Assembly: GCF_013167455.1 (NCBI RefSeq)
Contig: NZ_CP038328.1
Source: Escherichia coli O157:H7
GTDB taxonomy: Bacteria; Pseudomonadota; Gammaproteobacteria; Enterobacterales; Enterobacteriaceae
Direction: 5' to 3' (one strand)
DNA: 64,000 bases
Below are positions 44,546 to 44,612 of this stretch, piece by piece (within the stretch, counting starts at the first letter, position 1; the number at the start of each line of letters is the position of its first letter). Under the pieces are notes generated by a model. The model saw nothing but the letters and a program-made list of their open reading frames with translations, made no database searches and was not told where the DNA came from. Both the position numbers and the translations under genes were made by a program.

Positions 44546-44608
44546 AAAAAAAACCCCCACATCATGTGGGGGAAGACAGGGATGGTGTCTATGGCAAGGA
44601 AAACAGGG
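44546..44608 (-). ncRNA. cpxQ: Probable CpxQ sRNA (3'-UTR-derived from cpxP mRNA) with its intrinsic terminator
   Basis: The roughly 60 nt between the cpxP stop and a strong terminator (cccccacatgatgtggggg plus T8 on the minus strand) is where CpxQ is processed from the cpxP 3' UTR in E. coli and Salmonella. Ends were not mapped. Confidence 0.5.
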
Positions 44609-44612
44609 TTTA

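Follow-up and report, generated by a model that had tools for sequence, protein, structure and literature searches.

What does the short stretch of DNA that follows the cpxP stop codon encode? The window, by which we mean the whole 64,000-nt stretch of Escherichia coli O157:H7 DNA that was analyzed, carries pfkA, fieF (43562-44464) and cpxP (44613-45113) in that order on the minus strand, while cpxR and cpxA are divergent from cpxP and lie on the plus strand from 45263. A 901-base stretch over cpxP is 100% identical to E. coli O157:H7 chromosomes. An initial annotation of this DNA had proposed that the 3' UTR of cpxP is conserved and likely encodes the small RNA (sRNA) CpxQ. [quoted passage not shown] CpxQ is already known and well characterized, and nothing new is learned here on CpxQ itself. 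Two minor by-products emerged, the overlap of the gene with a phage attachment site and an Rfam model that is reversed. The features discussed are collected in Table 1.

Table 1. Features of the cpxP-fieF region, with positions in the window unless a comparison locus (L) is named
Feature	Coordinates	Strand	Basis or remark
CpxQ sRNA, 58 nt, UUUUCCUUGCCAUAGACACCAUCCCUGUCUUCCCCCACAUGAUGUGGGGGUUUUUUUU	44546..44603	minus	57/58 nt identical to K-12 cpxQ b4716
CpxQ 5' 34 nt with target-pairing blocks nt 4-14 UCCUUGCCAUA and nt 19-32 CCAUCCCUGUCUUC	44570..44603	minus	identical in 80/81 Enterobacteriaceae
Terminator hairpin, 8 bp and 3-nt loop	44554..44572	minus	terminator scanner, RNAfold
U8 tail, end of the transcript, presumably bound by Hfq	44546..44553	minus	T-run seen in the sequence
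9-nt spacer UAAACCCUG, cpxP stop to mature 5' end	44604..44612	minus	presumed RNase E cut G44604/U44603
attB core of WPhi-type P2-family phages, 47 nt	44543..44589	.	CpxQ nt 15-58 and 3 nt downstream
cpxP CDS, parental mRNA of CpxQ	44613..45113	minus	166 aa, LTXXQ family; PF07813, 78.3 bits
fieF CDS, next downstream gene	43562..44464	minus	product in the Pfam cation efflux family
CpxR box GTAAAACAACGTAAA (TTTAC-N5-TTTAC on the cpxP-sense strand)	45193..45207	plus	only exact match in the window
Hrs1 matches opposite cpxP	L086 2011-2084; L087 2029-2101; L088 2005-2078	minus	RF02628, scores 64.6-83.4 bits

Identity and extent of CpxQ

The cpxP frame ends in ...UCC CAG UAG UAA, the stop being the TAG at 44615-44613 (minus strand), which is followed by TAA. 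The two stops are in frame and in tandem (44610-44615, minus strand), so that the second forms part of the spacer. After the stops, the minus strand reads ACCCUG and then the sRNA. From the first base past the cpxP stop through the last T of the T8 run (44553-44546), 44612..44546 comprises exactly 67 nt, and this 3' UTR resolves into the 9-nt spacer and a 58-nt sRNA made up of a single-stranded part of 34 nt, a GC-rich hairpin of 8 bp, and U8. The interval given in the initial annotation was therefore exact, although the "about 60 nt" that it placed after the stop is really a spacer plus the RNA; similarly, its T8 holds, but the stem that it described as G5/C5 has eight base pairs rather than five.

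As a reference we used the RefSeq ncRNA cpxQ of K-12 MG1655 (b4716, 58 nt, NC_000913.3 4106330-4106387). Alignment with the published CpxQ had been named in the initial annotation as the check on its proposal, with a lack of identity as the result that would count against it. The alignment is 57/58 identical, and the proposal that the cpxP 3' UTR encodes CpxQ is borne out. We saw no feature of the sequence that speaks against it. The annotated K-12 gene begins 10 nt past the end of the cpxP CDS, and the element in the window begins at the same offset. CpxQ of K-12 and that of Salmonella enterica are like the window in locus, strand, distance from the stop, 58-nt length, seed, and possession of a CpxR-controlled parental gene. 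K-12 differs from the window at a single base, the middle one of the terminator loop (window 44563), where the window has A and K-12 has C.

Across complete E. coli genomes, the 67-nt cpxP 3' UTR was found in 5425 of 5426, and in 4189 of the 5426 records, about three quarters, identity to the window across these 67 nt is 99% or more, a level that allows no mismatch. Among the matches listed, the RefSeq annotation of the O157:H7 record and of other non-K-12 records has no cpxQ feature. We also considered and rejected a plasmid-borne CpxQ. Fifteen records of the plasmid collection matched; the two that were examined are chromosomal fragments, and others are megabase-sized. The two fragments filed as plasmids, CP022659.1 and NZ_CP039131.1, carry sodA-yiiM-cpxAR-cpxP-fieF-pfkA, and one of them is labeled Pseudomonas sp. 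A2 although its gene set is enterobacterial. A plus-strand open reading frame at 44564-44860 (98 aa) is antisense to cpxP and has no Pfam family match; we take it to be spurious.

How does CpxQ compare with other sRNAs of its kind? Like SroC (from gltI), SdhX (from sdh-suc), NarS, and MalH, it is released by RNase E from the 3' end of an mRNA, uses the parental terminator as its Hfq-binding module, and carries a 5' monophosphate. Unlike them, it comes from a monocistronic stress mRNA and serves the pathway in which the protein encoded upstream of it also works (PMC9438474).

Conservation of sequence and structure

Statistics on a single sequence give little purchase on this element. The fold z-score of the CpxQ region is -2.74, and the terminator scanner reports two sites in the region against 1.3 expected, which is uninformative. 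Because such chance statistics are weak, the case rests on comparison with other sequences. An initial homologue search yielded near-identical Escherichia proteins only. We gathered cpxP loci by protein similarity from 80 Enterobacteriaceae species with CpxP identities of 62-98%; since the loci were chosen by the CpxP protein, the 3' UTR had no influence on the choice.

In the 81 Enterobacteriaceae compared, the first 34 nt of CpxQ have a mean pairwise identity of 99.8% and are identical in all but one. The corresponding values are 77% for the cpxP CDS, 72% for its last 150 nt, 84% for the hairpin and T-run, and 41.5% for the 60 nt downstream of CpxQ. Distant syntenic loci, whose CpxP is about 48-54% identical, retain CpxQ, and one locus (L091) retains only its first block. 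In the most distant locus (L092 1400-2050; CpxP 36% identical, synteny lost, fieF not adjacent), CpxQ is absent and a plain terminator lies directly past the stop.

The hairpin of the window, CCCCCACA-UGA-UGUGGGGG at 44572..44554, is predicted by both the scanner and RNAfold, with a free energy of -13.7 kcal/mol. The 84 loci contain 27 distinct variants of this hairpin, all of them foldable, with stems of 6-9 bp and energies from -10.7 to -17.0 kcal/mol. Inner stem pairs vary on both sides, one position being A-T, T-A, or C-G and another C-G, G-C, or T-A, and a run of at least six T follows the hairpin in every locus compared. These variants were folded sequence by sequence. Column-based covariation, which this approach replaced, was dropped because MAFFT shifts the GC-rich stem variants by one column and RNAalifold then recovers only the four outer pairs. 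A small AGACA/UGUCU hairpin predicted by RNAfold is invariant, so covariation is uninformative on it.

Since the 5' 34 nt are nearly invariant and the hairpin variants all fold, we conclude that conservation acts on the sequence of the 5' part and on the structure of the 3' part. Such a division is the expected layout of a base-pairing sRNA that ends in a terminator and Hfq-binding module.

The CpxR box upstream of cpxP was likewise located correctly in the initial annotation as an exact GTAAA-N5-GTAAA match in the divergent promoter region. It lies 80-94 nt upstream of the cpxP ATG, inside the 146-bp region between cpxP and cpxR, and each of the 84 loci has an exact box between -103 and -90 relative to the cpxP start codon, the most distant locus included. 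One exact box in 64 kb compares with 0.10 expected, and 9 of 100 shuffles contained at least one, so that its occurrence is modest evidence when taken alone; boxes with one mismatch are not enriched in the window (five found, 3.19 expected). The conserved predicted box indicates that the parental cpxP gene is under CpxR control. As the most distant locus has the box and lacks CpxQ, the box is more widely distributed than the sRNA.

A phage attachment site within CpxQ

The 67-nt query returned about 670 more matches than there are E. coli genomes, and one partial match, on a circular element of 32 kb, adjoined a P2-type integrase. In the phage collection there are 62 matching records, and most of those among the matches listed match perfectly over the final 44 nt and only there. 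More than 50 genomes of P2-family phages have this 44-nt perfect match, WPhi, fiAA91-ss, and several Yersinia phages among them. Alignment of the window, the WPhi attP, and the junctions in E. coli ECCWS199 defines a core common to attB, attP, attL, and attR of 47 nt, GACACCATCCCTGTCTTCCCCCACATG(A/C)TGTGGGGGTTTTTTTTATC. In WPhi it lies between ogr and int, the standard position of attP. The window holds a single copy of the core, and attB is therefore unoccupied here.

Occupied sites are found elsewhere. ECCWS199 has a 1.9-kb remnant between cpxP and fieF, ordered cpxP-attL-int-C'-ogrK-attR-fieF, where C' is a truncated repressor gene. Its attL is a complete CpxQ, composed of 14 host nt and the core, and its attR is a 5'-truncated copy adjoining fieF. 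The Salmonella record CP022659.1 has int directly past cpxQ. A WPhi-type int region is present in 778 of the 5426 E. coli genomes (roughly one in seven), and an integrase homologue lies directly past CpxQ in 4/84 species representatives. MG1655 coordinate 4104392 presumably corresponds to 4106369, inside cpxQ (4106330-4106387), given the 1977-bp offset between the two versions of the MG1655 sequence. The former coordinate was reported in 2011 as the integration site of WPhi and L-413C (PMC3448106).

From these alignments, WPhi-type P2 phages appear to use cpxQ as their attB, and integration would rebuild CpxQ at attL. The CpxQ of a lysogen would then be a host/phage chimera whose second pairing block and terminator are supplied by the phage, 44 of the 58 nt lying in attP. 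A 5'-truncated copy of the core, with the second pairing block and the Hfq-binding module, would remain beside fieF. The loop base provides a marker: it is A in the window and in the WPhi attP, C in K-12, and in ECCWS199 A at attL and C at attR. These alleles fit a crossover 5' of the loop that would have left a phage-derived allele in the resident CpxQ.

Trabulsiella guamensis (L072 3014-3090), one of the four representatives with an integrase homologue, has the only divergent CpxQ among the 81 species, with the 3' half affected. Past CCCTGT there are a different stem and an 11-nt insertion, then a WPhi-like arm and an integrase that shares 61% identity with WPhi Int; this CpxQ looks like a host/phage chimeric sRNA.

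Several further arrangements were seen between cpxP and fieF. Scars resembling the WPhi arm ("ATCA...") occur in several other loci (L034, L040, L067). In Salmonella arizonae and several Citrobacter (L018 3062-4400; L019, L021, and L023 from about 3062), divergence begins right past the T-run, and an extra 1.2-1.4 kb with ORFs and without a WPhi-type integrase lies between cpxQ and fieF. A further idea, that ogr transcription extends into the attR copy, found no support, ogrK having its own upstream terminator (L094 5267-5286) and the core no promoter-like site before it.

Docking at the end of an RNA gene has precedents. WPhi and L-413C resemble phage 186, which uses tRNA-Ile, and Fels-2 and SopEPhi, which use ssrA, in that attP carries the 3' part of the RNA gene, with the core between ogr and int. 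Because this part is carried in attP, integration regenerates the gene. They differ from these phages in that their target is a 3'-UTR-derived sRNA and not a tRNA or tmRNA gene. Our full-text searches found no paper linking the WPhi site to CpxQ, which is not proof of absence.

Could the attachment site, rather than the function of an RNA, have imposed the conservation? Forty-seven nt identical to the attP of many P2-family phages, and the WPhi-type integrase region in hundreds of E. coli genomes, might suggest so. Yet the conserved block reaches 14 nt plus ACCCUG past the core on the cpxP side, while the stem, which lies within the core, is the very part that varies between genera; genera with a different stem therefore lack the WPhi core and still have the CpxQ RNA. 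Moreover, an integrase sits at the site in only the 4/84 representatives mentioned above, and phages typically exploit the conserved ends of RNA genes, such as tRNA genes and ssrA, rather than cause their conservation (PMC3448106). We regard an attB origin of the conservation as very improbable.

More than a terminator

Why would a gene carry such an element at its end if all that is needed is to stop transcription? The strong hairpin and U8 sit 82 nt upstream of the fieF start, and the region from the CpxQ terminator to 44464 holds the promoter of fieF, whose location downstream of the cpxP 3' UTR is mentioned in PMC4817254. An inert intrinsic terminator, conserved because it shields fieF from the strong promoter of cpxP, would by itself account for a stem that changes on both of its sides. 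However, termination does not require a 34-nt block that is identical in 80/81 species beside a CDS of 72-77% identity, and the most distant locus does with a plain hairpin directly past the stop. Phenotypes of deletion and overexpression, together with compensatory mutations, have furthermore been published (PMC4817254, PMC6755755). That the 3' UTR is a terminator and nothing else thus has next to no probability.

An Rfam model on the opposite strand

At the CpxQ site no Rfam family reaches its gathering score, and Rfam holds no family named CpxQ. Elsewhere in the window, matches above the gathering score lie at 47346-47423 (plus), 56268-56338 (minus), 42300-42341 (plus), 27059-27116 (plus), and 22395-22447 (minus); these are two naRNA4 (REP-type) elements, ES036, the ClpQY promoter element, and the L31 ribosomal protein leader.

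In a permissive search, Hrs1 (RF02628) matches the plus strand at 44546-44618 (E = 1.2e-7), its 44.5 bits falling short of the 56.4-bit threshold. The threshold is passed in three loci in which cpxP is on the plus strand, with 83.4, 74.7, and 64.6 bits, and there the matches are on the minus strand. The original description of Hrs1, from Erwinia amylovora, is of a 74-nt RNA under Hfq regulation that lies between cpxP and fieF, points the same way as both genes ("> > >"), and ends in a Rho-independent terminator; at that time it was classed as restricted to Erwinia (Zeng and Sundin 2014, PMC4070566).

Given its position between cpxP and fieF, its orientation, its regulation by Hfq, and its terminator, we conclude that Hrs1 is the counterpart of CpxQ. 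The two share, besides the cpxP-fieF position, Hfq dependence, and terminator, the blocks CCUUGCCA and AUCCCUGUCU. Hrs1 is unlike E. coli CpxQ in its Erwinia-type terminator stem (CCCCGCC/GGCGGGG) and flanks, and it is owing to these differences that E. coli scores 44.5 bits and falls below the threshold. The RNA is co-oriented with cpxP while the model matches the opposite strand, so RF02628 must be the reverse complement of the real RNA; its consensus opens with A7, followed by a hairpin. The sub-threshold score at the window reflects a narrow, reverse-complemented seed, the RNA being the same. The lack of a usable model, Hrs1 being both reversed and narrow, likely explains why cpxQ is unannotated outside K-12.

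Taken at face value, the orientation of the Hrs1 model would instead point to a functional plus-strand RNA, antisense to the 3' UTR of cpxP. The plus strand folds about equally well (-19.2 kcal/mol, z = -2.70), and the E-value of the plus-strand match is low. The hairpin on that strand follows A8 and has no T-run after it, hence there is no plus-strand terminator, and no promoter-like site was found. Furthermore, the paper that defines Hrs1 gives co-orientation with cpxP and fieF and a Rho-independent terminator (PMC4070566), and the loci with cpxP on the plus strand are matched on the minus strand. We therefore consider an antisense RNA barely conceivable at this site and retain CpxQ on the strand of cpxP.

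Biogenesis of CpxQ

In Salmonella, CpxQ was found as an Hfq-bound fragment of the cpxP 3' UTR (PMC9438474, citing Chao and Vogel 2016). The same paper describes its excision by RNase E, aided by Hfq, and the loss of CpxQ upon mutation of a conserved cleavage site. E. coli CpxQ naturally carries a 5' monophosphate, begins with U, and has a half-life of over 16 min (PMC10250213). Processing from the cpxP mRNA by RNase E, dependence on Hfq, and repression in trans have been described for both E. coli and Salmonella (PMC4817254, PMC9438474, PMC10250213, PMC6755755). Presumably CpxQ is expressed, processed, and bound by Hfq in this strain as well.

The spacer agrees with such a history. ACCCTG precedes the 5' T-run in 73/84 loci, and CCTG in 79/84, though both lie outside the CDS and the mature RNA. 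The U at +2 fits the signature of RNase E, and an RNase E site at CpxQ has been detected in vivo (PMC5222698). The conserved ACCCTG and the U two nt past the presumed cut are consistent with a conserved processing site.

Gene-internal promoters drive some sRNAs derived from 3' ends (PMC5222698), but it is scarcely credible that CpxQ is a primary transcript from its own promoter inside the cpxP CDS and not a product of RNase E, as no sigma-70-like site was found in 44300-45400, CpxQ begins with U, a poor initiating nucleotide, endogenous E. coli CpxQ has a 5' monophosphate and falls short of the length of a version made from a promoter (PMC10250213), and mutation of the cleavage site abolishes Salmonella CpxQ (PMC9438474).

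How would the locus then operate? Cpx envelope stress signaling would drive transcription of cpxP from the conserved CpxR box, and the transcript would terminate at the hairpin and U8 (44572-44546). Following the literature, RNase E, aided by Hfq, would cleave the cpxP mRNA just past the stop, at G44604/U44603, and release a stable RNA with a 5' monophosphate, whose single-stranded 5' part would pair with the nhaB, skp, cfa, and fadL mRNAs. Repression would proceed by blocked ribosome binding, by decay through RNase E, or by increased Rho-dependent termination, the last of which has been shown for cfa. One transcript would thus give rise to CpxP, a protein of the periplasm, and to CpxQ, a regulatory RNA of the cytoplasm, both of which would relieve inner-membrane stress.

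Targets and pairing

E. coli CpxQ represses nhaB through a site in its coding region (PMC10250213) and lowers Skp, and outer-membrane proteins are thereby kept from mistargeting to the inner membrane (PMC4817254). It also represses fad genes (10.1101/2024.10.18.618624) and cfa, where the mutation C11G in CpxQ is compensated by G135C in the leader (PMC6755755); the effect on cfa is mainly an increase in Rho-dependent termination (10.1101/2024.02.02.578684). The pairing bases C11 (cfa) and U7 (nhaB) lie in the 5' 34 nt, which are identical to K-12 and conserved as described above.

We predicted duplexes between the sRNA and its targets and compared them with shuffled seeds. In the cfa 5' UTR, CpxQ nt 4-11 pair with -135..-128 and nt 23-32 with -176..-168; none of 300 shuffles was as good, and the duplex contains the C11:G-135 pair that genetics has established. 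For nhaB and skp, the predicted duplexes coincide with the published sites or lie close to them. Their energies, and those of the cpxP 5' region, are no better than those of shuffled seeds (z 0.09 to 0.35). As only cfa beats the shuffles, the pairing test gives statistical support for cfa alone. Direct pairing of CpxQ with the cpxP 5' region, which was implicated by Grabowicz et al., finds no support in the comparison of duplex energies with shuffles.

Implications

The practical outcome is an annotation of cpxQ at 44546-44603 on the minus strand, since a well-characterized regulator is unannotated in the O157:H7 record. The overlap with the WPhi attB is a small addition, which extends the docking of phages at RNA-gene 3' ends to a 3'-UTR-derived sRNA. 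Prophage insertions and remnants at this attB should be weighed when CpxQ alleles or cpxP-fieF spacing are compared between strains.

Does occupation of the site matter to the host? We think it unlikely that the use of cpxQ as the WPhi attB, with chimeric CpxQ in lysogens, has a functional effect. If it does, phage-supplied variants, such as that at the Trabulsiella attL, could alter the level or stability of CpxQ, and a transcribed attR copy could be a decoy for Hfq or for the targets. Lysogeny would then be coupled to the envelope stress response.
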